Source of the DNA: a virus
Direction: 5' to 3' (one strand)
Virus record (IMG/VR): IMGVR_UViG_3300045988_136292
Span: 1-42,418 of that record
DNA: 42,418 nt
Below are positions 4,447 to 42,418 of this stretch, piece by piece. Positions within the stretch are counted from its first letter, which is position 1, and every line of letters starts with the position of its first letter. A program made the translations under genes and the position numbers. The notes under the pieces are model-generated. The model was not told the origin of the DNA, did no database searches, and was given only the letters and a program-made list of their open reading frames with translations.

Positions 4447-4734
4447 TTAATGTCGGTTACCGTGATAAAATCTTATAGCCTCATTGACATATAATGATAC
4501 TGATTGCTCCTTATCCAAGATAGCAGCTACATCCTCCTCTATCGTGACAAATATTTTTCTTACACCTCTAACCTTGGGACGTCTTGGCACACCATTGCTG
4601 TCCAATATCCTGTATATTGTCTGCTCAGACCGTACCCCTGTTTCTCTTATTATCTCTTTGATAGCCATCCCGTCCTTATATAGGGACAACACCCTAGACT
4701 CTTGATCTAGGGTAATAGATCGTCTTCTTGCCAT
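4447..4734 (-). CDS. HTH DNA-binding protein (95 aa)
   Basis: The segment LYKDGMAIKEIIRETGVRSEQTIYRIL is a resolvase/IS-type HTH. The C-terminal KIFVTIEEDVAAILDKEQ..YVNEAIRFY is RHH-like. Confidence 0.6.
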   Translation of the reverse strand: MARRRSITLDQESRVLSLYKDGMAIKEIIRETGVRSEQTIYRILDSNGVPRRPKVRGVRKIFVTIEEDVAAILDKEQSVSLYVNEAIRFYHGNRH

Positions 4735-4799
4735 AATTAATATGTTTTATAACATTTATAATTTGTTGCTCGTTAATTTAAAAAGTTGCACCTTTGCAT

Positions 4800-4930
4800 C
4801 GGACATCAACGATGTTAGTCGCACTTCGGTGCGTGGATTGAAACGACATTAGAAATGTCATTGTGACTTGCTCACAAATTAGTATTTTCTATGCAGCCAC
4901 TGTATAGTGAAGAGGCGGAGAAATCCGCCT
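4800..4930 (+). ncRNA. Candidate structured small RNA, antisense to the surrounding gene direction
   Basis: 230-bp ORF-free gap. Three short hairpins precede a strong + strand terminator: ACATC/GATGT, CGCAC-TTCG-GTGCG and GACAT/ATGTC. An imperfect Bacteroides-type promoter has TTTG at 4762-4765 and CACCTTTG at 4789-4796. Confidence 0.3.
4901..4930 (+). terminator. Strong intrinsic terminator (9-bp stem AGAGGCGGA / TCCGCCTCT, GAAA loop, then G plus T7)
   Basis: Read directly. The T7 run follows the hairpin only on the + strand. Confidence 0.7.
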
Positions 4931-4964
4931 CTGTTTTTTTATTCCCTTACTACTTTTATGCTAA

Positions 4965-5183
4965 TTAGTAGATAACAGCCTTTATCTTCATGTCAGTTAT
5001 ACAAACACTCTCTTGTCTCTGCACGGAATAGTAAGTAACGTGATTGTTCGATACTTCAAACATCGGATAAATCGAATCGGGATCGTCTTTAATTCCTTCA
5101 ACCGTGAATTTAACTATACCTTGCTTTGCTGCCTGTTTGAATGCTCTGCGAAAATCTGCATCTAATGAATTGAAAGTTTTCAT
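4965..5183 (-). CDS. Hypothetical protein (72 aa)
   Basis: Clean ORF with no recognisable motif. Confidence 0.55.
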   Translation of the reverse strand: MKTFNSLDADFRRAFKQAAKQGIVKFTVEGIKDDPDSIYPMFEVSNNHVTYYSVQRQESVCITDMKIKAVIY

Positions 5184-5227
5184 AATCTTGATACTGAATT
5201 AATCTGTTGTCACCAGCTTTATATTTA

Positions 5228-5503
5228 TTACCAAAAAATTTCTTCAACCTCAAATTCTGCCTTCTCTTCCCAATCAAAAAAATCTAAATTCTGTTCATCC
5301 TCTTCTGTCAAGTAGTAATATGCGCGTATCCTATAGCCATCAATATCAATAGGGGCTTCAGCCCACTCTTTTAAACCTACATGTTGCGGTTCAAACGCCG
5401 GATAAATATATCTGCTTGTAGGTTCTGCGCCAGTAGATATAGCTTTATCAGCTATTTCTTCACCAAATCTCTCTACTATTTCTTGATATGTGTAACTTTT
5501 CAT
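5228..5503 (-). CDS. Small, highly acidic hypothetical protein (91 aa)
   Basis: About 25 percent Asp+Glu. The C-terminus is TEEDEQNLDFFDWEEKAEFEVEEIFW. Confidence 0.55.
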   Translation of the reverse strand: MKSYTYQEIVERFGEEIADKAISTGAEPTSRYIYPAFEPQHVGLKEWAEAPIDIDGYRIRAYYYLTEEDEQNLDFFDWEEKAEFEVEEIFW

Positions 5504-5540
5504 AATTGTATGTTTTGTTTGTTATTACTTGTTGTTTTAT

Positions 5541-5612
5541 TATCACAGTGCAAATATACTACATTGTGATATAACAGCAAAACAAATCACAATATATTTT
5601 CTTGTATTGTGT
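5541..5612. promoter_or_regulatory. Cluster of ATCACA(A/G)T half-sites, including inverted pair TATCACAGTG..CATTGTGATA
   Basis: Half-sites at 5541-5550, 5562-5571 and 5585-5595, plus a degenerate one at 5606-5612. All lie just upstream of CDS 5228-5503. Confidence 0.3.
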
Positions 5613-5968
5613 AATATTTAACATTTAAATACAAAATAAAGAACGACCGCCAGCGAAAAGCACAGCAGCCGTTCAATCCACGCCCTACTCTCTATCCCAT
5701 TTTCCCGAGAAGACAATAGCAAAGATATCAATTCTGAAACGAAATACAAAAAGAAAACTATATTAATTAGTTATGAGGAGCCAATTTTGAAACAAAAACC
5801 AATCTTCTTAAAAAATTGCCATTAATGCAATATTTTTTACTTGCAAGATAAATGAAGAGAATTAATAGAACGGCAAGACTGGCGAGTTTGTATATTTATT
5901 GACATGAAACGAATGTTGTGGAATGGGATCGGAAAAACAAGTATAAAACAGATAGCTTTTATAGGTTT

Positions 5969-6481
5969 CTACTGCCTGAGATATTTTTCCGGGGATTTTT
6001 GAGATTTTATTTGATTTTGTTTTACATTTCTACGTTTAGAATACTTCTGGTTAGCCCTTGTCAGATCCTTGATGATTGTTTCATCAAACACTTCCGAATA
6101 TATCTCTGTTGTCTTGACCGATGTATGCCCCAAGAGTTTTTGGACGGTGGTTATCGGAACGCCTTGATGTACCAACAGAGTAGCACAAGTGTGACGACTT
6201 GTATGGTAGGTGAACTTCTTGTTAATACGCGCCATCCTTCCCAATTTCTGCAATGTCCGATTAGTGTCCGAATTGCAACCTAATGCAGCCAGTTGTTCGA
6301 TGCTGTCGTACTTCCGCATTATGCCCAGTGCCTTTCCGTTAAACAGCAGATATAGCGGAATATTGAGTTTTACGCCTGTTTTGATGCTATTCATAACTAG
6401 CCATTCCTTTCCGTCAACTGTTACGAGATTTTTATAAGTCAATTGTTTAAAATCAGAGAATCTCAATCCGCAATCAACCAA
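5969..6481 (-). pseudogene. Tyrosine recombinase fragment (catalytic domain only; N-terminal arm and core-binding domains missing)
   Basis: The frame opens right after a TAA, 6 codons before the catalytic Arg (CGLRFSD). Retains HTSRHTCAT (HxxR) and LLGHTSVKTTEIY (H..Y). The only start available is a TTG. Confidence 0.7.
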
Positions 6482-7348
6482 TTATCAAGACTGCAATTAT
6501 GGTTTGAAAAATTAGGAATACAAAATGTTACTTATGGAATAGTAATGAGAGCTGGAGGTAGTTTACAGCAGCATTTAGACAGTATTATTAATGATGAGCC
6601 TTACGATGAAAATTCAGCATTTAGAATTTATAGGAATGTAAATGGGGAAACTACATACATACCTAATGTAGATCCAACTGACAGGAGCGGAAATACAACA
6701 ACAAACAGTCAAATAAAATTGTCGGATTGTTTGCAATTCGCGGATTGGGATGTAATAACATTCCAACAAGCAAGCTGGGTAAGTGGTAAATGGGAAACAA
6801 TCGAACCGTATTTGCCTTCTTTGATCAAATATGCGCGTTACTATTGTCCTAATAGTGGTGTAAAGATTGGTTGGCAAATGACTTGGGCGTATGCAAAAGG
6901 GTATGGTGGATTATCTTCTTACAATAATTCACAGGAAGAAATGTTCAATGGAATTGTTCAGTGTGCAAAAAATGTATGTTCTTATTACGGAATAGATTTA
7001 ATTGTTCCTAATGGAGTTGTAGTACAGAATTTAAGAAATGTGCCTGAATCTTTTTGGGGTAGTGACTTAATTTCAATTAAAGGAGCGGAACAATGGACTT
7101 CGGAAACTCCTGCATCTGATTTTACCGATGATGGTTTGCATCCTAATAATATTGCGGAATATTGTACATCAGCAGCATTTATAATGGTTATTTATGGTGC
7201 ATGTTACAATAAATCAATAAGAGGTATAGATTTGGTATTGGATAATATTAGTGGTAATTATGCCAAAATAGCTAGACAATGTGTTTTAAAATCAATTGGA
7301 GATAGATTTAACAAGTCTGACATTGATGTTAGCAAAATTTTAGAATAG
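6443..7348 (+). CDS. SGNH-type hydrolase (DUF4886-like), 5'-truncated with no signal peptide or canonical start
   Basis: Block V is DDGLHPN and GGSLQQH resembles the family. The frame opens at 6401 without an ATG (TTG at 6443, first ATG at 6545). Overlaps the integrase fragment on the opposite strand. Confidence 0.5.
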   Translation: MFKIRESQSAINQLSRLQLWFEKLGIQNVTYGIVMRAGGSLQQHLDSIINDEPYDENSAFRIYRNVNGETTYIPNVDPTDRSGNTTTNSQIKLSDCLQFADWDVITFQQASWVSGKWETIEPYLPSLIKYARYYCPNSGVKIGWQMTWAYAKGYGGLSSYNNSQEEMFNGIVQCAKNVCSYYGIDLIVPNGVVVQNLRNVPESFWGSDLISIKGAEQWTSETPASDFTDDGLHPNNIAEYCTSAAFIMVIYGACYNKSIRGIDLVLDNISGNYAKIARQCVLKSIGDRFNKSDIDVSKILE

Positions 7349-7471: not shown

Positions 7472-7500
7472 AAGGGCTGACCACACCAAGATCAGCCCTT
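7472..7500. terminator. 9-bp-stem hairpin AAGGGCTGA/TCAGCCCTT between convergent genes
   Basis: Read directly. No clear T-run on either strand. Confidence 0.35.
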
Positions 7501-7520
7501 ACATCATAGTTGTCGATGGG

Positions 7521-9623
7521 TTACTTTACAATATTTGATTGTTTTTTGGGGAGCCAGCCTAATGATAACAATCTTTCAAAAACAATATGCGCAACAACTG
7601 TATAGCCAATCGAATTCCAATGTATACTATCATTCAAGAGACCATTTTTATTAATCGCACCAGCGTCTACAACATTCCAAGATGTAGACGGAGTTCCTTC
7701 ATTCATTAGTCCTAATTTAATTGCAATAGCTACCCCTCTTGTACTCATTTCATGATATAAATTAATATATGCGCTCCCAAAAGCTTCCTGATATTCATTT
7801 TCTCCCTTTTCCGTTCTTGATATGGCTGTTGAAATAAATAAATTCTTTTTACTATTGGCAAATGTCATGGATTGTTTTAAATGACCAATTCTTTTTTCTG
7901 AATATCCGCTAATCTTACCGTCATTTTGTCCTGTGTAAAAGATATTAATATAAGAGATTCCTGATAATCTAGCACCATAAGTAAGAATATTACTACCTGC
8001 TTTAATCTCGACAGCTTCACCATTGCTATTTATCTTCTCAATTTTTGGTCCTGTGCGTAAATTGAAAAATTCTCCATTTATCATTACTGGATTAATAACC
8101 GAACTATCATCTCCATTGTATGAAACGCTAAACCAGTCTGAACCATTTTCTCCCATAGATATGGTTCTAATACTGCATTCTACTCCTCCACTTACTGGTA
8201 CAGTAACATCATTTTTTAGAAACGCTGAAAGTCCTCCTTGTCTTGCCAATATTCCGGGAGTTGTATCACCTTGGACACCACAATTAATCACTTTATATTG
8301 TTCTGTAATATCATTATTTTCATCTATCAGCTCTTGCAAAACTTTAGGATATGTAATACCATTTCCTCCCTGACCGTATGTCAAAGAATCCCCCCAAGCG
8401 AGAATTATATTTATCGGCATCAGATAATCCTCAATATTTTGCTTCATTACATCAACATAATTATATTCTTCCCCGTCGTCAGCTTCTACTTTAATATCCT
8501 TCATTGTACTTCCGACTACATACAATTCTGTTGCCGTATTTTTATTATCGTATTCAAAAATATAAGGGGTAGGAAAAACAGAAGGAATACCTTTCTCCAC
8601 TACCATTCCATCTTTTTTAAATACAAATTGCAGCCATAAATCATTTGCATTGGGAGTACTTGTACATTCAATCCTAATTTTCTTTTTGTCGGTAATACTA
8701 TATTTGTTTAGCACTTTGCCTGCCGAATGTTCAACCACATTTCCGCTTGAATTTATAAGCCACCCATTTTTTGTTTCTGTATAATCTAAATTAATCAGTT
8801 TATAACTGATCAATGATTCAGATAAATCGTCAACTTTATTGGATAATTCATCAATTCTTTGAGTTTCGACAACCAAATCTCTTAGTTCGTCGGATAGTGA
8901 TTTATTAACACTTACAACTGATACTGTAGAACCTCTCTGAACGTATATCTTGGATGTTTGTGGTTGCAATTCTAACTTATAATCAACCAACGGTATTATA
9001 CTTCCTTTCGCCGGAATATTATTGATTATTGTATCATTTTCATCCAATTCCCATATAATAGACCATGGATTTGCAGCAACTGTGCCATTTCTTGTATTAA
9101 TTGTTACATTTCCATAATTGATTACATCATAAATATCATAATAGTACCCGGAATTATCAGCTATTGCATTATCTGTCTTAATTATACCTTTCCGACTCTC
9201 TGTCGGATGTATCTGTACAATATCGCCTGTATATTGTATGCCTTTGACCGCAGATAAAGCTTTATTAGTCAATAGAGTTAATTCTTCTTTATCTCTAATA
9301 TTTAATAAATTTATGAGCGAATTGTCATCCGAATCTCTAAGATACAATGTCTCATTATATATATATAATATACCCAGTGGAGTATATATAACCCAACTTC
9401 TCCCATTGTAAATAAACCAAGAGTTATCTGTATTTCTAAAAAAAATATCTCCTAATTCAGACCCACTTGGAGTGGTTGACTGTATATATTTAATAGGTAA
9501 TATTTCCAATTCGGATATTTCCGTAGCCAGACTTTTGCGGCTGATCGGGTTAACCACCGCATCATAAATAGTAGCCGGGTAAATGGTTTGTCCGCCCTTC
9601 GTCAGTTTATGCATTTTTGCCAT
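7521..9623 (-). CDS. Tail fibre / receptor-binding protein with C-terminal SGNH (GDSL) esterase domain
   Basis: 700 aa. All four SGNH blocks are present: AWGDSLTYG, NCGVQGDTT, YTGQNDG and NDSIHWN. It is the last gene of the tail module. Confidence 0.7.
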   Translation of the reverse strand: MAKMHKLTKGGQTIYPATIYDAVVNPISRKSLATEISELEILPIKYIQSTTPSGSELGDIFFRNTDNSWFIYNGRSWVIYTPLGILYIYNETLYLRDSDDNSLINLLNIRDKEELTLLTNKALSAVKGIQYTGDIVQIHPTESRKGIIKTDNAIADNSGYYYDIYDVINYGNVTINTRNGTVAANPWSIIWELDENDTIINNIPAKGSIIPLVDYKLELQPQTSKIYVQRGSTVSVVSVNKSLSDELRDLVVETQRIDELSNKVDDLSESLISYKLINLDYTETKNGWLINSSGNVVEHSAGKVLNKYSITDKKKIRIECTSTPNANDLWLQFVFKKDGMVVEKGIPSVFPTPYIFEYDNKNTATELYVVGSTMKDIKVEADDGEEYNYVDVMKQNIEDYLMPINIILAWGDSLTYGQGGNGITYPKVLQELIDENNDITEQYKVINCGVQGDTTPGILARQGGLSAFLKNDVTVPVSGGVECSIRTISMGENGSDWFSVSYNGDDSSVINPVMINGEFFNLRTGPKIEKINSNGEAVEIKAGSNILTYGARLSGISYINIFYTGQNDGKISGYSEKRIGHLKQSMTFANSKKNLFISTAISRTEKGENEYQEAFGSAYINLYHEMSTRGVAIAIKLGLMNEGTPSTSWNVVDAGAINKNGLLNDSIHWNSIGYTVVAHIVFERLLSLGWLPKKQSNIVK

Positions 9624-9690
9624 AATGTATTCTATTATTCGCCTAAGTTCCGCCGGAACTTGGGCTGTTGTTATTTTATGTAATTATTTA

Positions 9691-10122
9691 TTAACTATTA
9701 AAATCACTCAGCACATCATCATACTCCTGATCTGACAGAGATACGCTCTGCACCGCATTGTATGCGGCATAATCCGGATAGGGCATGATCTCCGCTGTGC
9801 TCTCATCCGTCTTCCCGGTAGTCAGCACAATCCCTGTATCTTCAATAGATACAAGGTTGCAGATGCCATCTCTAAAGTCAGAATCAGAAATGAAGTATTC
9901 CCGTTTGACCTTCAGCAAACCAGGGGAGAAGCCGGGGTTGTCAAAAGCGACAAGCAGACTGCCATCTTCCATACGGCTGCACCCCACATACTCTTGCCCA
10001 TCAAAGGAGGCTATAAACTTTCCCTTAAACGGATTGAAGTAAGTAAACCGGAAGGGAGTTGATATGTCTCCATTCAGGTTCTTCTCTATAATTTTAAAAT
10101 CTGATTGGTAATTAATTTTCAT
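9691..10122 (-). CDS. Hypothetical tail-module protein (143 aa)
   Basis: Clean ORF. Assigned by position between tail proteins. Confidence 0.55.
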   Translation of the reverse strand: MKINYQSDFKIIEKNLNGDISTPFRFTYFNPFKGKFIASFDGQEYVGCSRMEDGSLLVAFDNPGFSPGLLKVKREYFISDSDFRDGICNLVSIEDTGIVLTTGKTDESTAEIMPYPDYAAYNAVQSVSLSDQEYDDVLSDFNS

Positions 10123-10124
10123 AA

Positions 10125-10463
10125 CTATAATATTGATGTAACATCGTCTATCTCCTCGGCTTTCAAGATGTCAGAAAGGTCAACACTTCCACCACCTCCT
10201 GTCGTGCCTGTGGCACTCCATGTTCCCTTTGTCTTGCATTGATATATAGGACCCGGTATGGTATCCCCCACAACTGCCCAGTCACCCACAACAGGAGATG
10301 GGACAGCAGCCTGCAATGCTTCTACCGTAGAAAACAATCCCTTGTTGCGTATAGCGTTCTGCTTGACCTTCTCCACTTCAGTGGAGGTCTTGCTAAAGTT
10401 GTTGTTAAGACGATCTACCGCCTCACTCCAAGTACCTGTTTTATTAATACTATTAAGTTCCAT
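10125..10463 (-). CDS. Hypothetical tail-module protein (112 aa)
   Basis: Clean ORF, tightly packed with its neighbours. Confidence 0.55.
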   Translation of the reverse strand: MELNSINKTGTWSEAVDRLNNNFSKTSTEVEKVKQNAIRNKGLFSTVEALQAAVPSPVVGDWAVVGDTIPGPIYQCKTKGTWSATGTTGGGGSVDLSDILKAEEIDDVTSIL

Positions 10464-10464
10464 A

Positions 10465-12852
10465 TCACTTTCTTACCTTTAACACTCCATTTGTCACTAT
10501 TCCTTCAAGTGTTTCATATTCCACATATACCTGCCCGGAGCTGACGTTATCTTTAGACGGCCAATTACTGCATTCAATATTTGCCACATATTTAGACACA
10601 CCCCCCCCGTCATATACCGGTTTCATCCCAACCAACAGAGTTTCGCCTTTAGAGCCATAGAAAGAAACGTTATTGGGAGTAAGAATAATATCCGTATTTC
10701 CCACATGATTCTGTATTCTGATACGTTCCGGATATACAGTCGTTTCTTGTATCAATTGGTCCCCTACATATTTCCGTAGAATCAAATCACCATACTCCCA
10801 TCCGTCTGATGATGTGTCGAACCTTAATATCAAGGTGGCATGTCCTTCAGTCGTGTACATTTCAAGAGTATTTTTATCCGGATCAATGACAATGCGTTTC
10901 CCGTCAACAGATGTTTCTACTTTTCCGCGGAAAAATCCGCCCAAGGCTTCAACCACACCTCTGAACTTACCACCCAAGGCATAAATATAGCCACGAAGGA
11001 ACGTATCGCCACCATGAGTGGCAACAAAATTCGCCATATTCGCCCATTCCGTATCTGTGGGCTGGTAATCGGGGGCATTACGAAACTTCATTACGGTTAA
11101 TATAGCCTGTTGCAGCGTGCCTCCTGCCCAAAATGCTACATCATCATCGTCATTGTATATGCCGCTAACTCCGGCTGTGACCTTCTGCATCTTACCATCC
11201 TTGTAGTTGCCTAGTTGGATCATATTAGCTAGTATCAAACCGCCAAGGATATCCACAGATCCATCCTTAATCGCACTGGCGATATAGTTAATTGCTTGAA
11301 ATCCGGCCATAGACTTATCATTGTCAAGAATTGAAGGCTTCCAATCGGTAGCGATGGTTCCTCTTTCTAACTGAAGATCACAAACGGTTGCGGTACCACT
11401 GAGCATGAAAATACCTGCACCGTTAAAAGCGAACTTGAAAGTGTATCTTTGATAATCGGACGCAAGAGGCTGAGTTGTGCTGAAATCACCACACGAAACA
11501 GCCACAGACACACCTTTAGCTTTAAAGGATATAACATAGTTCTCATTTTTAATCAATGATACGGACTGGGACAAGCTGCCTATTGCAGCAGAATATCCGG
11601 AAATAGCCTCACTGTCAGCAGATACGGTAGCCACTCCCGTCCAATATTCCAATTGCTTGCTGAAAAGCTCGGTATCCGCCGATAACTCGGTAGCGGCAGA
11701 TAGATCCTCTGTTTCATAATCTCCCGTAAACCCAGTATTACGTAACAGATTGACCGAACCAATATTTACAGCCTTATAAACCTCATCCGGCAAATCCGTC
11801 AGATTTGCCGAACCTGTAGAACCCGGCTGCAAGTTCATCCTTCCCGTCAACAGATTGTCTCCCGGTTTTATTCGGGTATATTCTTCCGGCAAAATAAAAT
11901 TATTGATCCCCACATATTGTCTTATGTATGGAGACCCTGTGCCGGCACCTGCTAAAATCTGAGCATTTTGCCTATTAGGATCATCTGTACCTTGATATCC
12001 TAATTGTACAATATCATCCCCTACCAATGGAGCATCACTCTCCAATGCACATACACTTTTTGACAGGTCTATATAATCAGTTCCTACAGATACAACCAAA
12101 CGCCATAAATAATGATTCCCTAGTTTCCCATCTGCCTGCTTTTCCAAATTAAACGTCTCAACCAGTGCCTGATCTTTTTCCTTAAATTGATTATATATTA
12201 TCCTTCCATCAGCATCCTTAGTACGCATGTAACATCGCCAAAAATCGTTGTATTCCTCAACTTTTATACAAGACATTCCGGCCGCTGTCTGCATCAACTT
12301 TCCACCGATATGGGTTGTCTTCTGTACTTCTATTTCTTCGGCGGTCAACTTCCTCCGAAAATGAGCATAGTCAAGTTCCAGATGCCATGCGCCTTGTTCA
12401 TCTTGCCATAATCCTGCTCCGGTTGAACCTTGTGTAAAATTTCCTCCATACCACCCCTTTAAAAATGTGATAAATTCTTTGGCCGTATCTGGTTTATCCT
12501 TCCGTAAAAAATGGTCGATAACAAACAGACCTGTCAACATATCATCATCCCTAATATCATCATACTCTGTTTTGGTTCCGACAATACGCTTTAAATCGTG
12601 CCCACTAATTTTTATCCCCTTCAAAAAATTAATCACCCCTTGCGCTTCATCGTCATTTAAAGCGGAAATAAACCAATTAAATACAGGTGTGTCCTCATCC
12701 AGCGTATATGCGGAATTGGCATGATCGGCATTGGTGACATCACCGCCGCCACCGCCACCCTGTATAATAGTCACAGAGCGGGGAACATACTTCCCATCAC
12801 GCTCCCTCGGTACTACCCTACTTATGATTCTTATATCTGACTTTATCGCCAT
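10465..12852 (-). CDS. Large tail/baseplate protein (795 aa)
   Basis: Assigned by size and by position two genes downstream of the tape measure. Has a Gly-run near the N-terminus. Confidence 0.6.
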   Translation of the reverse strand: MAIKSDIRIISRVVPRERDGKYVPRSVTIIQGGGGGGDVTNADHANSAYTLDEDTPVFNWFISALNDDEAQGVINFLKGIKISGHDLKRIVGTKTEYDDIRDDDMLTGLFVIDHFLRKDKPDTAKEFITFLKGWYGGNFTQGSTGAGLWQDEQGAWHLELDYAHFRRKLTAEEIEVQKTTHIGGKLMQTAAGMSCIKVEEYNDFWRCYMRTKDADGRIIYNQFKEKDQALVETFNLEKQADGKLGNHYLWRLVVSVGTDYIDLSKSVCALESDAPLVGDDIVQLGYQGTDDPNRQNAQILAGAGTGSPYIRQYVGINNFILPEEYTRIKPGDNLLTGRMNLQPGSTGSANLTDLPDEVYKAVNIGSVNLLRNTGFTGDYETEDLSAATELSADTELFSKQLEYWTGVATVSADSEAISGYSAAIGSLSQSVSLIKNENYVISFKAKGVSVAVSCGDFSTTQPLASDYQRYTFKFAFNGAGIFMLSGTATVCDLQLERGTIATDWKPSILDNDKSMAGFQAINYIASAIKDGSVDILGGLILANMIQLGNYKDGKMQKVTAGVSGIYNDDDDVAFWAGGTLQQAILTVMKFRNAPDYQPTDTEWANMANFVATHGGDTFLRGYIYALGGKFRGVVEALGGFFRGKVETSVDGKRIVIDPDKNTLEMYTTEGHATLILRFDTSSDGWEYGDLILRKYVGDQLIQETTVYPERIRIQNHVGNTDIILTPNNVSFYGSKGETLLVGMKPVYDGGGVSKYVANIECSNWPSKDNVSSGQVYVEYETLEGIVTNGVLKVRK

Positions 12853-14875
12853 TCTCTATCATTGATAATGTTACTGTATTCTGCTCGTAATCCCATACAC
12901 CACTTAACAGCATGAATTTCTTATTAACCATAGAATTGTCATACAAAACCGTGAAAGGATGAATGAGATCACTGTTTTTTAATACCTGAGTTAACTTGAT
13001 TTTGGTTACCCGGTATCGGTTAATGATACGCCTGATCAACGCTTCTTCGGGGCGCACAAGCGTACCTTCTATTGCCGAATACAAGTTGTTTGTTAAAAAA
13101 TTGCCATTTAAAAGAGCCTTGCTATACGTCGCCCCGTCTTCATTATAACTACTTATGCCAAATTCTATCTCGTCAAGTTCGGACATAAATTTTTCATTGA
13201 CTACATTCTCGTATACACGATCCCCGTTCTCACCTTCATCTACAACTCCGTCTTTTTTCTTATAGGCAACTCTTAGATTTTCTATATCAACTACTTTTAT
13301 ATATTTATCATTCTGATATGGGTAATCCGTACCATACAGGATTAATTCAAATTTCCCCGTCAGTGGCACAGAATCTGGGAACTCAATCACATATCCCGTA
13401 AGCCCCTCATACGGCATATCTGCCTTTTTCGTTGCACGCAGTTTGGTTCGTTCCACTTCCTCACCCACCTCTCCTATACCTATCGTAAATGTGGTTTCGC
13501 TATTTTGCCATTTATTTCCATTCCAGTAATGATCGCCAATACGTAATTTAAACCGTAACACATGATCTTCCGTGATTGTCACCTTATTAGGCTCTGCGTA
13601 ATTCGTTGTAAATAAAATATCGGCTGAAATTCCTATCGCTGCATCCTTATAGACAGCTGTCACTCCTCCCACTCTTAATATAGGATTTCCTACAGCCGTA
13701 CTAATTATCCTATACCTCAATAAAGACCTCCATGTGTAATTCTCCGAAATTATTGTATACAACGGAGTTAATCCATCCCATCCCTTAAAATCTATATCAG
13801 CCTCCCCGACTCTGTATGCGGTCATACCGCCAGTCATATTATAATTTAAATTAGCACCCATTACAGGGATGGCATCTTGTGAAATCTCTCCATTATCACC
13901 ATATGCTATTGATTCCCATCGTTCTAATGTCAACCCTTGCACATTCTCCACCTTATAGTATTTGTTATCATTCCTCTTATCCGTCAAGTTTGTGAAGCTC
14001 CCATACATATCACTCACATCAAATCCCTTATCATCCACCAATTCATCAAAAACATTATTTATTGCCTTAACGGTAACCTTATTATATCCGGGGAGCACAT
14101 CTATTGTATGATCACTGCCGCCAAAGCCGATATCCTGAAGCAATACAGTGTTTGGAGTAACCATCTCATAAGTGACAAGATCCTCGCCATACGAGAAGTA
14201 TTCCCCTTCCCAATCTGCATCTACAAAATACAGGCTACCTTCATAATCGTATAAGGTCCAATTAAAAAAACGACAAAAATACTCCAGTACCTCGTCCAAC
14301 ATCATCCCTTCTGAGGTGAAGTTTTCCTCTGCGAGAGTTATCTCATCGAATATGTTTTTCTTTGTCGAATAATTCACTTCTGACGATCCATAGACATAAG
14401 GTATATATATCTTTTCATATCCCCCATTAGCTGATCTTATAATGTACCTTAAGAGGTTTATCGCCGTTATAAATCCATTCTCTGTCTGTTTCTCATATTG
14501 TATATTCTCAAGCGTTCCTATTGCGCTTATGCAGTTTATACTCAATTTATCCGCAATTGGCACATAAGCTTGAGTAAACACTTCCGGTTCCACATATCCC
14601 GTCCATAACAGTTTATTCCCTCTATACAATTTTACAGCAACATGGTGACTGTTTACGCTAAACAAGTCATTCAACAAACTATCAGTCACAATGGATACTG
14701 ATGCTGTAGATGTCCGTACAGGCTCGTACACAAACTCTTCATCTGTCCCTGTTACGACAAATGCGGACGGTGCACCTGTCAGTGTTTCTATTTCACCTAT
14801 ATAATCCTCCATGTAGAATTTAATCTCCAAGGATTCACCGGCATAATTGAAAAATGGCAATCTATATCTCTGCAT
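12818..14875 (-). CDS. Distal tail / baseplate hub-type protein (685 aa)
   Basis: Immediately downstream of the tape measure. The assignment is positional. Confidence 0.55.
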   Translation of the reverse strand: MQRYRLPFFNYAGESLEIKFYMEDYIGEIETLTGAPSAFVVTGTDEEFVYEPVRTSTASVSIVTDSLLNDLFSVNSHHVAVKLYRGNKLLWTGYVEPEVFTQAYVPIADKLSINCISAIGTLENIQYEKQTENGFITAINLLRYIIRSANGGYEKIYIPYVYGSSEVNYSTKKNIFDEITLAEENFTSEGMMLDEVLEYFCRFFNWTLYDYEGSLYFVDADWEGEYFSYGEDLVTYEMVTPNTVLLQDIGFGGSDHTIDVLPGYNKVTVKAINNVFDELVDDKGFDVSDMYGSFTNLTDKRNDNKYYKVENVQGLTLERWESIAYGDNGEISQDAIPVMGANLNYNMTGGMTAYRVGEADIDFKGWDGLTPLYTIISENYTWRSLLRYRIISTAVGNPILRVGGVTAVYKDAAIGISADILFTTNYAEPNKVTITEDHVLRFKLRIGDHYWNGNKWQNSETTFTIGIGEVGEEVERTKLRATKKADMPYEGLTGYVIEFPDSVPLTGKFELILYGTDYPYQNDKYIKVVDIENLRVAYKKKDGVVDEGENGDRVYENVVNEKFMSELDEIEFGISSYNEDGATYSKALLNGNFLTNNLYSAIEGTLVRPEEALIRRIINRYRVTKIKLTQVLKNSDLIHPFTVLYDNSMVNKKFMLLSGVWDYEQNTVTLSMIENGDKVRYKNHK

Positions 14876-22668: not shown

Positions 22669-22696
22669 GACTAACCATTTTTTTGTATGACAAAAA
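22669..22696 (-). promoter_or_regulatory. Conserved late-gene upstream element, copy 3
   Basis: Lies 17 nt upstream of the protease ATG. Confidence 0.4.
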
Positions 22697-23964: not shown

Positions 23965-23993
23965 AGCTAACCTTTTTTTTGTCATACAAAAAG
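23965..23993 (-). promoter_or_regulatory. Conserved late-gene upstream element, copy 4 (palindromic core centre flipped)
   Basis: Lies 15 nt upstream of the ATG at 23949. Confidence 0.4.
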
Positions 23994-24067
23994 GTGTTTT
24001 ATTCATCACGAACAAAACACCCCTCCCTGGAACAGTAATTATATTATGAATAAAGTTTTAAAGTGCC

Positions 24068-29119: not shown

Positions 29120-29409
29120 TCAGACTTGTACGGCTGGTTTGCTCTGCTCGCAAAGTGCTACCCGACTGCCGAAACGTATCAGTTTGGGCAAGTGGGTGTC
29201 AAGCTCATGACAGGGGAAACGTACTGTCCATATTTTTTACCCTGCCCGCAGACCTGTTCGCTGACGGGAATGTTCAAAACTCTGGATGCGACAGTGGCAT
29301 CATTCGCATACAGTTCCCAAAAGTCTTCGTTTCGAAAAATTAACAGGTAGTCCGGATGCTTCCCTTTTATATTGTGGTATTGATGTTCCATTACATTTGA
29401 TTGCTCCAT
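29120..29409 (-). pseudogene. Stand-alone MutS domain I (mismatch-binding domain) homologue, interrupted by a -1 frameshift at an A6 run
   Basis: Frame 0 (29179-29409) reads MEHQYHNIKGKHPDYLLIFRNEDFWELYANDATVASRVLNIPVSEQVCGQGKK. The -1 frame continues IWTVRFPCHELDTHLPKLIRFGSRVALCEQSKPAVQV to a stop at 29120. The joined product aligns without gaps to MutS residues about 10-95, including the Phe-x-Glu motif (FWE). Confidence 0.6.
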
Positions 29410-29449
29410 TATTGTCAAATTTAATCCTCTGTTCTGTAGTATAATAACA

Positions 29450-30103
29450 TTAATGATAGATACCATACTTTCCCCATCCCTCTTGTTGGCAGTTTATTGG
29501 TAGGTAGAGCCCTGTATAAACAAGATAACGATAGAACGTCCCCTTTGATACTTTCAATCTTTTGGCTATAATGGTTTTTTCAGATCCTTTAGCCAGTTCT
29601 TTTACAATATAATCGTGCTTGTTGGCACATTTGGGATTAAGTCTACAACGAAAGCCACGACAATGTCCGAGCATTGCCCCTTCTGCTTTTTTTCTCGCTA
29701 ACGCCTCTTTTGTACGTTGACTGATAAGATTGCGTTCAATCTCAGCTGACAATCCGAAAGCAAAGGCAAGGACTTTACTTTGTATATCTTCCCCAAGTCT
29801 ATAGTTATCTTTAATTGTCCATACCTTACATTCTTTTGTCATACAGATATTCAAGATTTCCATAATCATAAAAAGATTACGTCCAAGACGTGAAAGTTCA
29901 CTACAGATGATAATATCATCTTTGCATACTTTACGTAGTAAACGTCCAAGCTGTCGTTTTGTGTAATTTTTCGTTCCACTGATAGTTTCTTCTATCCAAT
30001 CGTCAATCACCAACTTATTACGTTCACAGAAATTGTTTATCTCAAAACGCTGGTTCTCTACAGTCTGTTTGTCACTGCTTACTCTAATATATCCGTAAAT
30101 CAT
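29450..30103 (-). CDS. Serine recombinase of the resolvase/invertase type, Mpi-family-like
   Basis: MIYGYIRVSSDKQTVENQRFEI contains the catalytic Ser motif. Also has SELSRLGRN, LSAEIERNLISQRTKEAL and a C-terminal HTH (IIAKRLKVSKGTFYRYL). The ORF frame extends to 30187, and 30103 was chosen as the start. Confidence 0.8.
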   Translation of the reverse strand: MIYGYIRVSSDKQTVENQRFEINNFCERNKLVIDDWIEETISGTKNYTKRQLGRLLRKVCKDDIIICSELSRLGRNLFMIMEILNICMTKECKVWTIKDNYRLGEDIQSKVLAFAFGLSAEIERNLISQRTKEALARKKAEGAMLGHCRGFRCRLNPKCANKHDYIVKELAKGSEKTIIAKRLKVSKGTFYRYLVYTGLYLPINCQQEGWGKYGIYH

Positions 30104-30179
30104 ACTTCTCCAAATTTGTTCATTATTGTTCGCGTTTTGAGCCATACGGCAGACATTCAACCGCCGTATGACAATGTGC

Positions 30180-30632
30180 TTATTCAACTATCATCCAATC
30201 GTTAGCAAGCATATCCGTCTGTGATGCAAGCCAACCATTTACAACGGCGCCATCGGCAGCTTTCATACATAAGTATGCAGTAAACTTGATTCTATCAGTT
30301 TCCGAATCTCCATGATTGTTGGCAACCCATCTTTTGAATGATTCGGGAAGTGATTTAACCTGATTCACAATCATGTTAGTCGGCAGACTATCTTCAGGTC
30401 GCATAAATATAAACATTCCCTTACCATTCCATCCTTTACGAGCAACAAGATGTCCCCGTTTAAGTGATTCCAGTGCCTGCCCAAATGTTCCTGTTTCTTC
30501 TCCCAATAATTCACCTTTCATTGCTCCAAGAACATAAGCTGTTTGAATAAGCCCTTCACACTCTTTTGCTTCTTTGTTACGCGATACTACACTTGCTGCA
30601 TATTCGGCAGCCTTTTCATCTAATGTTTTCAT
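30180..30632 (-). CDS. DUF2829-domain protein (Tad2-like candidate anti-Thoeris sponge)
   Basis: Contains FGQALESLKRGHLVARKGWNGKGMFIFM and NGWLASQTDMLANDWMIVE, hallmark DUF2829 motifs. Has an N-terminal extension of about 45 aa. Confidence 0.6.
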   Translation of the reverse strand: MKTLDEKAAEYAASVVSRNKEAKECEGLIQTAYVLGAMKGELLGEETGTFGQALESLKRGHLVARKGWNGKGMFIFMRPEDSLPTNMIVNQVKSLPESFKRWVANNHGDSETDRIKFTAYLCMKAADGAVVNGWLASQTDMLANDWMIVE

Positions 30633-30840: not shown

Positions 30841-31770
30841 TTATTTGAATAAGTTTTTCATGGACTTGTTTATCGCATCCAGTTTATCATCCATTGATGG
30901 ATGAACATATAGATTCATAGTCGTAGATACATCTGAATGTCCTAAGATACGACTCGTTGTCTTCATGTCGGCTTTAGACGCAATCATGCGTGTGGCGAAT
31001 GAATGCCTTAGACCGTGGAACTTAATACACCTGTCCAATCCAACTTCATTCAAAACGAGATGCCTGTAATAGTTTCGGTAAACCCTTGGCTCACAAAACT
31101 TCTCATCTCCAGTAGTGACATAAAAACTATCATTATAGCAAGCCTTGAATTTTTTCAAGATACCGAGTAAATCACGGCCTATCGGAATATCACGGCGACT
31201 TTCTATAGTCTTGGGAGTAGATTCTATAACCTTGGTTTTTCGGGTGTCAATATCCATAATTCGTTCAATAGTATGAGTTACATGGATACATTTGTTATCA
31301 ACATCTATATTCTCCCACCTCAGTCCGCAAATTTCACCAATTCTCATACCTGTACACAAGCCTATTAGAATGCCCAAGCGCTTAGGTTTCGGATAATCCA
31401 CTATGTACGAGATTATTTTTTTTTGTTCAAATTCTGTATATACTTCAAGATCTTTAGTTGCTTCCATATTGGCAGTAGGAAACTGAACACGATATTTAAT
31501 ATATCTTACACCAAATCGCTCCATTGCATAATACAATAGCATCTTAAAAGAGATGAATATGTCTTTAGCTGTTTTCACAGATAACCCTTCTTCAATCAAA
31601 GACAGCATAAATCTCTGCATTTCGTCATTAGTAACATATTCCGGGTCTTTATCTCCATATATCGGAAGTATTTTTTGTGTGAACTGATAGACATAAGTGG
31701 AGCATGTACTTTCCTTTACTAACTTGCGCTTAACAGGAAGCCATTTATTGTATATCTCTTGAATCGTCAT
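30841..31770 (-). CDS. Tyrosine recombinase (second, intact; Xer/phage-integrase family)
   Basis: Has the catalytic Arg in TGMRIGEICGLRW, the HxxR motif in HGLRHSFAT and the H..Y motif in LGHSDVSTTMNLYVH. The N-terminus is a SAM-like domain. Confidence 0.85.
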   Translation of the reverse strand: MTIQEIYNKWLPVKRKLVKESTCSTYVYQFTQKILPIYGDKDPEYVTNDEMQRFMLSLIEEGLSVKTAKDIFISFKMLLYYAMERFGVRYIKYRVQFPTANMEATKDLEVYTEFEQKKIISYIVDYPKPKRLGILIGLCTGMRIGEICGLRWENIDVDNKCIHVTHTIERIMDIDTRKTKVIESTPKTIESRRDIPIGRDLLGILKKFKACYNDSFYVTTGDEKFCEPRVYRNYYRHLVLNEVGLDRCIKFHGLRHSFATRMIASKADMKTTSRILGHSDVSTTMNLYVHPSMDDKLDAINKSMKNLFK

Positions 31771-32363
31771 TGTATATTGCTTTTTATGATAAGTTTATGT
31801 TCAGGATCCTTAATAATGTCACTAAACCCTAAAGTATCATCTTTACGGTTTAAAAGAATATACTTCATTTTTATGGATTTTTCCAAAACGTCACCATGAT
31901 AAACGTACCCCATAATCCCGCGAATTGATAAATTAAGGAGCAAAATAGGTATTGATCGTGCAGACAACTCCCAACATATCACCATATTCTGCGATGGAAA
32001 GTGCTCCCAAGGAATCTTGTTGTGGCACCGCTGCCACCAATCAGCGATTATCATAGAACCATTTCCGGCTGTAGGCTCATGTATCGAACCAGCCTGGCTG
32101 GTTAATTTAGAACAAAGGATTCCAAGGGAGTTTGGTGTGAAATCCTGTTTCTTCTGCTTCCGCTCTGACAATTCATTCTCATACAAAGCCTGAAACCAAT
32201 CATAAGACATATCGTAATCATTCATACGGATCAATTCGTTATAGATTTTATTGCGTAATTCTACAGAACCGTCAAGAATACGCATTACTGCATCAGGAAG
32301 ATCTCTTAAATCTTCTATATGAAATATTTTAAATGCTTCTTCTTTCGTCATATTAATAATCAA
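31767..32363 (-). CDS. N6-adenine DNA methyltransferase N-terminal fragment-like protein (motifs X and I present, no NPPF/Y motif)
   Basis: Contains QDFTPNSL, IHEPTAGNGSM and YHGDVLE. The ORF ends about 40 aa later without motif IV. ATGA overlap with the recombinase gene. Confidence 0.45.
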   Translation of the reverse strand: MIINMTKEEAFKIFHIEDLRDLPDAVMRILDGSVELRNKIYNELIRMNDYDMSYDWFQALYENELSERKQKKQDFTPNSLGILCSKLTSQAGSIHEPTAGNGSMIIADWWQRCHNKIPWEHFPSQNMVICWELSARSIPILLLNLSIRGIMGYVYHGDVLEKSIKMKYILLNRKDDTLGFSDIIKDPEHKLIIKSNIQ

Positions 32364-32825: not shown

Positions 32826-33443
32826 TTAATCAACCTCTATAATCTGATATCTCCCTTTTTGGATGTAAATCTTATGGTTGTAATAATCCTTGATTACTGC
32901 ATATCCAGACTGGGGCCTAATATTACCTGTTAAATCTTCAACATAAGAATTGTCGTAGGCCTTCACTGTTGCGCTGTCGCAGGCCTCCACTGTTGCGCTG
33001 TCGTAGGCCTCCACTGTTGCGCTGCCGTAGGCCTTCACTGTTGCGCTGCCGTAGGCCTTCACTGTTGCGCTGCCGTAGGCCTTCACTGTTGCGCTGCCGT
33101 AGGCCTTCACTGTTGCGCTGCCGTAGGCCTTCACTGTTGCGCTGCCGTAGGCCTTCACTGTTGCGCTGTCGCAGGCAAAAGATGTCGTTGTTACCTCATG
33201 GTATTTTTGTGTATAGATACCAGCTTCCGCAAGATCTTCTTCAGCAAAATTGTCTTCTAAATATTCTGCATCTACTATTCTTGCTGTTCGTGACACCCAA
33301 GACCAGTTATCAGTAATAGCCTTAAGTATATCAGCTTTGCTTTGACTCCTTAATCCCATCGCATAACCTATTTGACAAGCTCCTGCTTTCTTGGCGCGCA
33401 GTAATAGTTCTTCCTTTATTTCTTCAAATGTTTTCTGTTTCAT
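32826..33443 (-). CDS. Repeat protein with about 10 tandem 8-residue units (SATVKAYG)
   Basis: 205 aa. The N-terminal domain reads KEELLLRAKKAGACQIGY..ITDNWSWV. The rest is 8-aa beta-strand-like repeats encoded by the 24-bp array. Confidence 0.7.
   Translation of the reverse strand: MKQKTFEEIKEELLLRAKKAGACQIGYAMGLRSQSKADILKAITDNWSWVSRTARIVDAEYLEDNFAEEDLAEAGIYTQKYHEVTTTSFACDSATVKAYGSATVKAYGSATVKAYGSATVKAYGSATVKAYGSATVKAYGSATVEAYDSATVEACDSATVKAYDNSYVEDLTGNIRPQSGYAVIKDYYNHKIYIQKGRYQIIEVD
32955..33176. repeat. Tandem 24-bp repeat, 9 full units plus a partial one (unit GTAGGCCTTCACTGTTGCGCTGCC)
   Basis: Counted directly. Five central units (33027-33146) are identical, while the outer units carry 1-3 substitutions. 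The array is in frame within CDS 32826-33443. Confidence 0.95.
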
Positions 33444-38615: not shown

Positions 38616-38798
38616 ATGATGAACGTATTTATAGACAAGCTGGAAAGGTTGATGAATGAATTCAAAAATGAATCAGTCAACCCAAATGAAGACGAAGCCA
38701 AAAGGCAAAGTCTTATTCTTATTATATGCAATGGTCATAAAACCCCTAGGAAACATTTCAATTTAAAAGAATATAATCAAAATATCAACTATGAATAA
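38616..38798 (+). CDS. Hypothetical small protein (60 aa)
   Basis: ORF with an 8-nt overlap to the exonuclease gene. Confidence 0.4.
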   Translation: MMNVFIDKLERLMNEFKNESVNPNEDEAKRQSLILIICNGHKTPRKHFNLKEYNQNINYE

Positions 38799-39720
38799 CG
38801 CTAACTTTATCGCTATTGATTTTGAAACTGCTACCCCGAAAAGAATGCCTTGCCAAATTGGGTTAGTTGTAGTTAAAGAAGGAGTTATCGTAAAAAAAAT
38901 CAATGAATTGATACAGCCTCCCCAAAATAAATATTCGGTGTCATGTACTAAAGTTCATGGTATCACTCCTGAACATACCTTAAATTCACCTACATTTGAC
39001 ATTTTATGGGATAAAATTAAGCCCTATTTTGATAAAAACTTTATCGTAGCGCACAACATTGATTTTGATTATGATGTACTCGAAAAAGCATTATCTTATT
39101 ATAATATACAACACCCCATTATAATGGGGTGTGCATGCACTTATCAGCTTTCGGAAACAAACCTCGAGGAAGCATGTTATATAAATAATATTCCGCTACC
39201 GTCTCATCATGATGCTGCCTGCGATGCAGAAGCTTGCGCACGTTTGTTTTTAAAGTATCTTGACGGTGAATTATATGCAATTGACAGATCATCCATGCCA
39301 AAACAAGCAGAAGAACAAACAGAGGAGCAAAAAGCATATAACGAATTCTATTCCAATTTTATCCAAGAACATACACCCCTAACGGGTGATATATTGAAAA
39401 AAGATTTATCTAACGCTGACCCTAACAATCCTTTTTATGATAAAAAGATTGTCATTACAGGAGTATTTACCCAAGAACGAAGTGACCTTGCACTTACTTT
39501 AAAGAATATGGGAGCTGATATAAATACTTCCATTTCAAAAAAAACTGATTTTGTCTTGATTGGAGATGAACCGGGATATAGAAAGATAGAAAAACTAGAC
39601 GAATTAGAACGGAACGGATGTAAAATAACAAGGCTTTACCAAAAAGATTTAGATAAAGTATTAGCAGGTGAATGGGATGAATACACCAAGAACCTCCAAA
39701 TTAAAAGCAATAACAGATGA
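38791..39720 (+). CDS. DEDDh (DnaQ-like) 3'-5' exonuclease fused to a C-terminal BRCT domain
   Basis: ExoI is FIAIDFETAT, ExoII is VAHNIDFDYDVL and ExoIII is HHDAACDAEA (H-x4-D). The BRCT-like segment is KKIVITGVF...SISKKTDFVLIGDEPGYRKIEKLDEL. Confidence 0.8.
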   Translation: MNNANFIAIDFETATPKRMPCQIGLVVVKEGVIVKKINELIQPPQNKYSVSCTKVHGITPEHTLNSPTFDILWDKIKPYFDKNFIVAHNIDFDYDVLEKALSYYNIQHPIIMGCACTYQLSETNLEEACYINNIPLPSHHDAACDAEACARLFLKYLDGELYAIDRSSMPKQAEEQTEEQKAYNEFYSNFIQEHTPLTGDILKKDLSNADPNNPFYDKKIVITGVFTQERSDLALTLKNMGADINTSISKKTDFVLIGDEPGYRKIEKLDELERNGCKITRLYQKDLDKVLAGEWDEYTKNLQIKSNNR

Positions 39721-42395: not shown

Positions 42396-42418
42396 TTGTA
42401 CACCCGATGAGAATCGAA
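42396..42418. repeat. Right copy of the 23-bp terminal direct repeat (putative att core)
   Basis: Identical to 1-23. Confidence 0.8.

Follow-up and report, generated by a model that had tools for sequence, protein, structure and literature searches.

What does a phage-borne DNA invertase act on when nothing beside it appears to be invertible? The question is raised by a gene in the viral genome IMGVR_UViG_3300045988_136292 of IMG/VR, a stretch of 42,418 nucleotides (nt) that is analysed here in full, is referred to as the window, and represents a complete 42.4-kb temperate siphophage of Phocaeicola vulgatus. The original prediction placed the gene on the minus strand at 29450–30187, assigned its product to the family of the Bacteroides fragilis master DNA invertase Mpi, and proposed that it could re-set phase variation of the host capsule or surface in trans, or else flip an unrecognised phage segment. 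The present analysis identifies the product, by its sequence, as an orphan member of a clade of small serine invertases that is otherwise linked to invertible methyltransferase genes (methyltransferase invertons). Because the phage itself holds no substrate, action in trans on host DNA is the leading explanation; host methyltransferase invertons are the best-supported target, and we give this reading about an even chance of being correct.

The invertase and its family label

The open reading frame (ORF) at 29450–30187 is genuine, and its start had been placed too far upstream. A TTG start at 30187 would overlap the upstream gene, and every invertase homologue begins at MIYGY; the ATG at 30103, which is preceded by GGAGAAG, is therefore taken as the real start of a protein of 217 amino acids (aa) that opens with MIYGYIRVSS. 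The predicted architecture of a catalytic domain followed by a C-terminal helix-turn-helix (HTH) is confirmed by Pfam matches to Resolvase (PF00239, 6.9e-33, residues 2–143) and, in the C-terminal part, to HTH_7 (PF02796, 2.5e-6), and the motifs YxRVS (YIRVSS, with the serine nucleophile), SRLGR and AEIER align with those of Gin. An AlphaFold model has a mean predicted local distance difference test (pLDDT) score of 70, rising to ~88 in the HTH, with helices at residues 163–172, 176–183 and 187–197, and the C-terminal tail of ~20 aa is typical of the clade. To judge from these features, the product is a small serine DNA invertase that is catalytically intact. A transposon resolvase, the grouping that had been named beforehand as refuting the Mpi-type reading, is not indicated: among solved structures, Gin (36 bits) scores marginally above the Tn3 and gamma-delta resolvases (30–32 bits), no transposase is found among the neighbouring genes, and the DNA upstream is not conserved together with the invertase.

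Membership of the Mpi family also stands, with 341 bits on the NCBIfam model NF009949 ('master DNA invertase Mpi family') against a cut-off of 272, and it does not carry the implication of capsule-promoter flipping that was drawn from it. Enzymes linked to methyltransferase invertons reach 342–349 bits on the same model, and the PGAP label of one of them, from Prevotella nigrescens, is the same family name, which is also borne by Lactococcus proteins and one Campylobacter plasmid protein at 48–56% identity. Since enzymes of methyltransferase invertons score equally and bear the same name, the label says nothing on capsule control and should not be taken to mean it.

Cellular relatives adjoin a methyltransferase switch

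In cellular relatives of the window enzyme (homologous loci are designated by L numbers), the invertase gene is joined to a crossover site with a 19-bp core, GACCCTCAAAAGAGGGCTT, of which GCCCCTCTAAAGAGGGCTT is a variant. The proximal site starts at or within ~21 nt of the invertase stop codon, and its inverted partner, at a distance of 2–4 kb, falls within the gene of an Eco57I/MmeI-type N6-adenine methyltransferase, immediately 5' of the codons for GFDIVIGNPPY. Where the invertase is 86–87% identical to that of the window, a perfect 46–49-bp inverted repeat links the start of a partial Eco57I/TaqI_C cassette to a convergent, full-length gene of 1048–1135 aa (MmeI_Mtase/Eco57I/TaqI_C), and a PLD(HKD)-SNF2 helicase-nuclease of at least 1147 aa also lies beside the invertase; in P. 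nigrescens (L083), one arm of the repeat is cut to 18 bp, ACGACCCTCAAAAGAGGG. PADLOC classifies the methyltransferase as type IIG/DrmMI-like and its partner as HKD+Snf2. As read from this arrangement, inversion would swap the C-terminal end of the methyltransferase, with its catalytic motif and target-recognition region, with one or two silent cassettes.

Every cellular locus that is long enough and encodes a homologue of 82–94% identity has a site pair beside the invertase, including L068–L071, L078–L081, L083, L098, L101–L106, L186 and L187. Among the nine loci in this identity range from a genome scan, inverted site pairs are present in L098 (Bacteroides propionicigenes), L101 (Paraprevotella) and L104–L106 (which include Capnocytophaga); L102 and L103 end within the inverton with the proximal site present, and L099 and L100 are too short for the test. 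Metagenome stretches fetched by the site pattern hold an invertase 73–93.5% identical to that of the window in 62 of 120 cases, the others being mostly short or ending near the site, and several metagenome contigs stop within ~50 nt of it. The same cassettes are expressed in one genome and silent in another, with breakpoints at the sites (L015 compared with L098 and L101). Cassette positions swapped at the sites, together with contig ends close to them, are what a segment undergoing inversion within samples should produce, and we infer that the adjacent invertase drives these methyltransferase invertons.

In L186 (2220–19000) and L187, the module resides on an NBU-like mobilizable element (integrase, HTH_17, primase, MobC and relaxase), and its invertase is 92.2% identical to that of Bacteroides phage B124-14. 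Both loci encode exactly the methyltransferase P0280, whose source name is B. fragilis, an identical protein bearing several Bacteroides species names. A Schlafen/AlbA_2 gene adjoins the helicase-methyltransferase-cassette-invertase module of these two loci. The methyltransferase family is named in P. vulgatus, B. fragilis, B. thetaiotaomicron and others; the site is present in L188–L190, the contigs in which the P. vulgatus-named methyltransferase is encoded, and linked loci occur also in Prevotella, Paraprevotella and Capnocytophaga. The crossover site and the architecture of a methyltransferase inverton that is widespread on Bacteroidales mobile elements are thereby defined.

Distant clades of the family (68–77% identity, ~200 aa; L111–L113, L116, L120, L123–L124, L134, L146, L153, L163–L167, L173, L175–L176) also have an inverted repeat that starts at or just after the stop codon, with other sequences; TGAGCGATTTTGTGCAGCA, which extends as much as 200 bp into the coding region, and TTCTAYTTTAGGGAGGGATTTTG are examples. 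It seems to be a rule across the family that a crossover site directly adjoins the stop codon.

The phage copy has neither site nor cassette

The window holds none of these partners. At up to 3 mismatches in 19 nt, the GACCCTCAAAAGAGGGCTT site has no match in the window, and its 14-nt core has none at up to 1 mismatch; on a position weight matrix of the site, the best score in the window is 9.0, compared with at least 23.6 for real sites and a maximum of 11.8 in shuffled sequence. No ORF in the window encodes an NPPY methyltransferase, and the complete 47-kb genome of B124-14 likewise has no site and no NPPY methyltransferase. Among viral loci with an invertase of at least 80% identity, the site is absent from 37 of 39 and present only in L015 and L035. 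Past the stop codon of the window gene, ~20 nt (…TACTACAGAA) are homologous to the linked loci, and the homology ends exactly where GACCCTCAAAAGAGGG begins in these relatives. A half-site left after the invertase, as by loss through site-specific recombination, was considered and rejected, with 5 of 9 bases matching. On sequence grounds, the window enzyme is thus an orphan member of the methyltransferase-inverton clade, and its DNA site is probably that of the inverton-linked invertases.

The initial observation that neither flanking inverted repeats nor an adjoining invertible segment are visible is upheld. A scan of the whole window for inverted repeats returns only AT-rich chance pairs, none of them flanking the invertase; no invertible segment with inverted sites, of the Gin/Hin type, lies beside the gene; and the window is collinear with all close relatives, with no inversion seen anywhere in the genome. 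The best pair (22673–22696 and 23976–23999; 24 nt, 88% complementary) brackets the portal gene and was rejected, there being no inversion at that place in relatives; each of its arms is a small palindrome (TTTTTGT..ACAAAAA). The suggested search for Mpi-type repeats in the phage likewise gave nothing: ARACGTWCGT, which we take to be the repeat core of B. fragilis Mpi and which is unrelated to GACCCTCAAAAGAGGGCTT, has no exact match and a single one-mismatch match in the window, below chance, and a single copy in B124-14. No short site common to the phages with long-standing orphans was found, nor any recurrent repeat or short shared island across the invertase-carrying phages. A k-mer search of 66 viral loci had as its top result a 17-nt repeat 137 nt apart, downstream of the invertase in eight loci; it is treated as a coincidence because its orientation is the same in all eight, and it presumably lies inside the downstream HNH-like ORF.

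The 8-bp inverted repeat CATACGGC-N12-GCCGTATG, previously noted just upstream of the invertase, is confirmed and forms, on folding, a 12-bp stem (-21 kcal/mol, z = -2.3), and it is no lead to the substrate of the enzyme. The hairpin is kept with the adjacent Tad2-like gene in Phocaeicola phage PV4-TP1, where another gene, not the invertase, comes next, and in L077 an inserted 72-aa gene parts it from the invertase; by this comparison, it belongs to the Tad2-like module and not to the invertase unit. GC-rich 8-bp hairpins are enriched in the window, with 11 perfect stems (at least 5 G/C; several are overlapping registers of one hairpin) against 1.0 in shuffles.

Exchange among phages and purifying selection

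Homologues of the invertase are found at 66 loci in IMG/VR. Homology of the invertase module to other phages starts ~0–30 nt upstream of the ATG; DNA similarity to the window ends at the start codon on one side, and at the stop codon or after an adjacent gene encoding only MutS domain I (MutS-I) on the other. Because similarity stops at the ORF ends, the unit exchanged between unrelated phages is essentially the ORF. L077, a different phage, has the cassette at 99.9% identity, and L063, a distantly related phage of the same type, carries an orphan invertase of 81% identity in the same genomic position.

The MutS-I ORF comprises the start of MutS domain I alone, with the DFWELY mismatch-binding motif intact, and is shared with B124-14 (ORF064c); gene calls on L072–L077 give it, on identical contigs, 76 aa at 29179–29409. 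A MutS-I gene adjoins the invertase, upstream or downstream, in ~26 of 64 viral loci and in nearly every phage locus of the clade with an identity of 89% or above, and is absent from the cellular loci of invertase relatives. Copies of the upstream and downstream types are 38–46% identical to each other, compared with more than 90% for their invertases. This divergence led us to reject a single, circularly permuted cassette of invertase and MutS-I; the arrangement looks instead like a shared insertion hot spot. MutS-I-type ORFs of 76–95 aa are also present in L001–L032, L062 and L064.

Two viral contigs, L015 and L035, contain the invertase together with a methyltransferase inverton (at 10001–14349 and 7478–10873, respectively), and both end inside the active gene; L015 has two silent cassettes. 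L015 is phage-like, with an antirepressor, a DnaD-like loader, a DnaB-like helicase, a methyltransferase and a PAPS reductase, followed in order by a DUF551-like gene, MutS-I, the invertase and the inverton. It follows that the complete switch can be phage-borne.

In a neighbour-joining tree, orphan and inverton-linked enzymes interleave, and the window enzyme is nested among linked ones, with 93.5% identity to that of L098 and 93.1% to those of L186/L187. Orphan L020 is 99.1% identical to linked L101, and orphan L016 is protein-identical to four linked enzymes. Orphans that share the invertase–MutS-I junction (window, L012, L002 and B124-14) have ratios of nonsynonymous to synonymous substitution (dN/dS) of 0.045–0.15 at dS of 0.33–0.72, the same range as in the few closely related pairs with a linked copy for which dS is unsaturated. 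These low ratios, and the retention of the 81% identical orphan at the same position in L063, indicate that the orphans are under purifying selection.

Proposed role and alternatives

It is plausible that the phage invertase is made in the infected or lysogenic cell and acts in trans on host-borne sites of the GACCCTCAAAAGAGGGCTT type, such that specificity switching of a host defence methyltransferase would be raised or re-set and the phage DNA would not be rearranged. Trans action on the host, as originally proposed, thus stands as the leading explanation; the capsule loci do not stand as its likely target, because the nearest cellular relatives serve a methyltransferase switch with its own site, making a defence-specificity inverton the most likely one. 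The target methyltransferase family is present, by names, in both host species, P. vulgatus and B. fragilis, and genes of counter-defence type (Tad2-like, methyltransferases) neighbour the invertase, in support of such a role. We infer that the phage copy acts on methyltransferase invertons, with what may be some gain for the phage.

Several points weigh against this proposal. The link between the phage and any inverton is drawn from sequence, and the target is placed in the hosts by species names. Every inverton with enough flank already has its own cis invertase; the phage copy would be redundant unless dosage or timing matters, and switching between two functional specificities gives the phage no clear benefit. 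In addition, residues S174, G188, Y200 and G211 of the DNA-binding domain occur in none of the 30 distinct linked enzymes. G188, a T188G change, is the second residue of the recognition helix predicted in the AlphaFold model, and we take it to align with the base-contacting Ser174 of Hin in the Hin–hix structure; together with an aromatic residue at 200, it is common to the long-standing orphans B124-14, L012 and L036. The specificity of the window enzyme, and with it the exact target, may, on these residues, be shifted or relaxed.

The alternatives differ in what the enzyme would act on and in whether the phage would benefit. Phage contigs L015 and L035 still hold invertase and inverton, and orphan and linked copies interleave, some of them identical, with DNA homology stopping at the ORF ends; these observations favour a passenger from a phage-borne inverton module that is repeatedly re-seeded from linked copies and brings the phage no benefit. 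Such an origin is nonetheless unlikely, as the derived invertase–MutS-I junction is shared at dS of 0.33–0.72, yet dN/dS is 0.05–0.15, L063 retains its 81%-identical orphan at the same genomic position, and, apart from L037, no frameshifted copies were seen among the full-length loci. It is quite unlikely that the phage enzyme works like B. fragilis Mpi and flips promoter invertons of host capsule or surface genes in trans, altering susceptibility to other phages, even though the window protein passes the Mpi-family model, Mpi acts on 13 distant regions (PMC4747536), and G188, which only long-standing orphans have, might point to a new target in the host. Inverton-linked enzymes obtain equal scores on the family model, and all close relatives of known context serve a methyltransferase inverton. 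An Mpi-type core, taken as ARACGTWCGT, is absent from the window.

Action on an unrecognised phage site, whether by inversion of a segment or by single-site resolution of replication dimers, would follow the precedent of the classical phage invertases Gin and Cin, which act on their own genome, and a single res-like site would escape inverted-repeat searches. However, the gene moves between unrelated phages as a bare ORF, so that no flanking site travels along; no recurrent repeat or short island common to the carrier phages was found, and no inversion is seen among relatives across the whole genome, which leaves this explanation very unlikely. Least probable, and highly improbable, is a role of the invertase with the adjacent MutS-I protein in recombination or repair apart from site-specific inversion: although the two genes adjoin in almost all phage loci at 89% identity or more, in either order, the MutS-I types are 38–46% identical against more than 90% for the invertases, as at a shared insertion hot spot, and the cellular relatives are without a MutS-I gene.

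Beyond the proposed action on host methyltransferase invertons, a bolder extension would make the orphan invertases of Bacteroidales phages a counter-defence device, expressed early from an anti-defence island and flipping the phase-variable defence methyltransferase of the host in the course of infection or in the lysogen; in this full form we consider the idea improbable. If it were true, phage DNA would receive methylation of more than one specificity, or else the defence would fall out of register with the host methylome, and the progeny might then be able to infect subpopulations of the host whichever way the switch is set. Phase-variable restriction-modification and related defence systems are generally regarded as bet-hedging by the host, to which phages can only submit. 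Should phages regularly bring along the cognate invertase and not the switch, they might be able to direct this bet-hedging, which would be a new interaction in the arms race between gut Bacteroidales and their phages.

The surrounding phage genome

A 23-bp terminal direct repeat, TTGTACACCCGATGAGAATCGAA, at 1–23 and 42396–42418, forms the attachment core of the phage. Identical contigs show the genome both circularly joined and integrated beside asnA and ung, and L181 holds an integrated attachment junction at 11263–11420; in the integrated form, the core presumably reads as the 3' end of a host tRNA gene next to asnA. The flanking, exactly matching AsnA and UDG proteins carry P. vulgatus names, on which the host assignment rests. 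The separate tyrosine integrase that was noted originally is present (Table 1), and a third tyrosine recombinase, truncated, lies at 5969–6481.

The invertase is located in the early accessory island of the phage, on the minus strand, where the order is a methyltransferase-like ORF, a 309-aa Xer-like recombinase, a small ORF that we take to be lipoprotein-like, the Tad2-like gene, the invertase, the MutS-I ORF, a DUF551-like gene, an HNH gene and the terminase. The Tad2-like gene, whose product is a candidate anti-Thoeris sponge, has 84% nt identity to gp52 of PV4-TP1, and the small ORF adjoining it is 98% identical to a LoVEphage stretch. The methyltransferase-like ORF (phrog_1071) has motif I and no NPPY, ending before the NPPY position; the possibility that it represents the constant N-terminal part of the inverton methyltransferase was rejected, as the two have no sequence similarity. 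In the relative L074, the same slot is filled by a C5 methyltransferase and a PAPS-reductase-like gene.

Table 1. Coordinates of the invertase and of other features in the window
Feature	Position	Strand	Remarks
MutS domain I-only ORF	29179..29466	-	95 aa from first ATG; PF01624, 1.4e-11
Invertase 3' flank, where linked relatives have the proximal site	29410..29449	-	from alignment
Orphan small serine DNA invertase, 217 aa	29450..30103	-	catalytic domain 1–143, HTH ~157–197, ~20-aa C-terminal tail
Hairpin, 12-bp stem containing the 8-bp repeat	30143..30170	-	3' end of the Tad2-like gene module
Tad2-like (DUF2829) protein, candidate anti-Thoeris	30180..30632	-	PF11195, 2.3e-24
Variable island slot	30841..32363	-	phrog_1071 methyltransferase-like ORF (31767–32363) overlaps 309-aa Xer-like recombinase (30841–31770)
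Bacteroidales-type tyrosine integrase, 420 aa	41084..42346	+	

Three further regions of the window stand out. A 24-nt tandem repeat of 9.3 copies at 32954–33176, within an ORF at 32826–33443 on the minus strand, encodes GSATVKAY repeats; its copy number seems to vary among close relatives, as judged from offset matches, L072 is without the array stretch, and similar arrays are present in the unrelated viral loci L006, L021 and L029–L032. The stretch at 4447–7348, following the tail genes, has 34% GC and contains a 95-aa HTH_7-like ORF, the truncated tyrosine recombinase and an opposite-strand DUF4886 gene; it looks like a decayed or imported accessory module. At 38791–39720 on the plus strand, an RNase_T-type exonuclease is fused to a BRCT domain, beside the HTH repressor of the lysogeny module.

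Comparison with known systems

The window gene is not new as an annotation, since ORF065c of B124-14 is already called a 'DNA invertase'. That protein, also of 217 aa, is 91% identical to the window enzyme and is likewise an orphan in its genome, and the invertase–MutS-I pair (ORF064c being a 'putative mismatch repair protein') is shared at 83% nt identity over 967 bp. In contrast to the window, no integrase is annotated in the B124-14 record; this phage has B. fragilis as host, and the surrounding genes are unrelated. In the literature searched, no published function was found for ORF065c, nor any paper on phage-borne orphan invertases or on phage invertases acting on host restriction-modification invertons.

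Similar to Gin of Mu, Cin of P1, Pin of e14 and Hin, the window gene encodes a phage- or prophage-borne small serine invertase. However, identity to these enzymes is ~27–30%, and they have their own adjacent invertible tail-fibre segment, whereas a cis target is absent for the window gene. That a phage enzyme can flip a segment of the host has a precedent in Gin and Cin, both able to complement hin in trans, and this group of invertases needs a Fis-bound enhancer. B. fragilis Mpi is a small serine invertase of the same NCBIfam family and acts on distant sites (PMC4747536); unlike the window gene, it is encoded on the chromosome, head-to-head with tsr19, and inverts promoter segments.

Small serine recombinases mark defence islands, for which inversion has been suggested as a regulator (Andersen et al. 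2026, PMC13552941); unlike the present case, these are cellular loci found via an Enterococcus bait, and no phage-borne orphans are described among them. Eco57I-domain methylases are reported to be enriched among the targets of gene-altering programmed inversions (Milman et al. 2023, PMC9881135). Unlike the invertases of the Eco57I/MmeI methyltransferase invertons, which abut the site and the cassettes, the window copy is phage-borne and retains neither; in its protein it is nevertheless close to them, with 82–94% identity (up to 100% for other orphans), the same length and an HTH that differs by a few residues.

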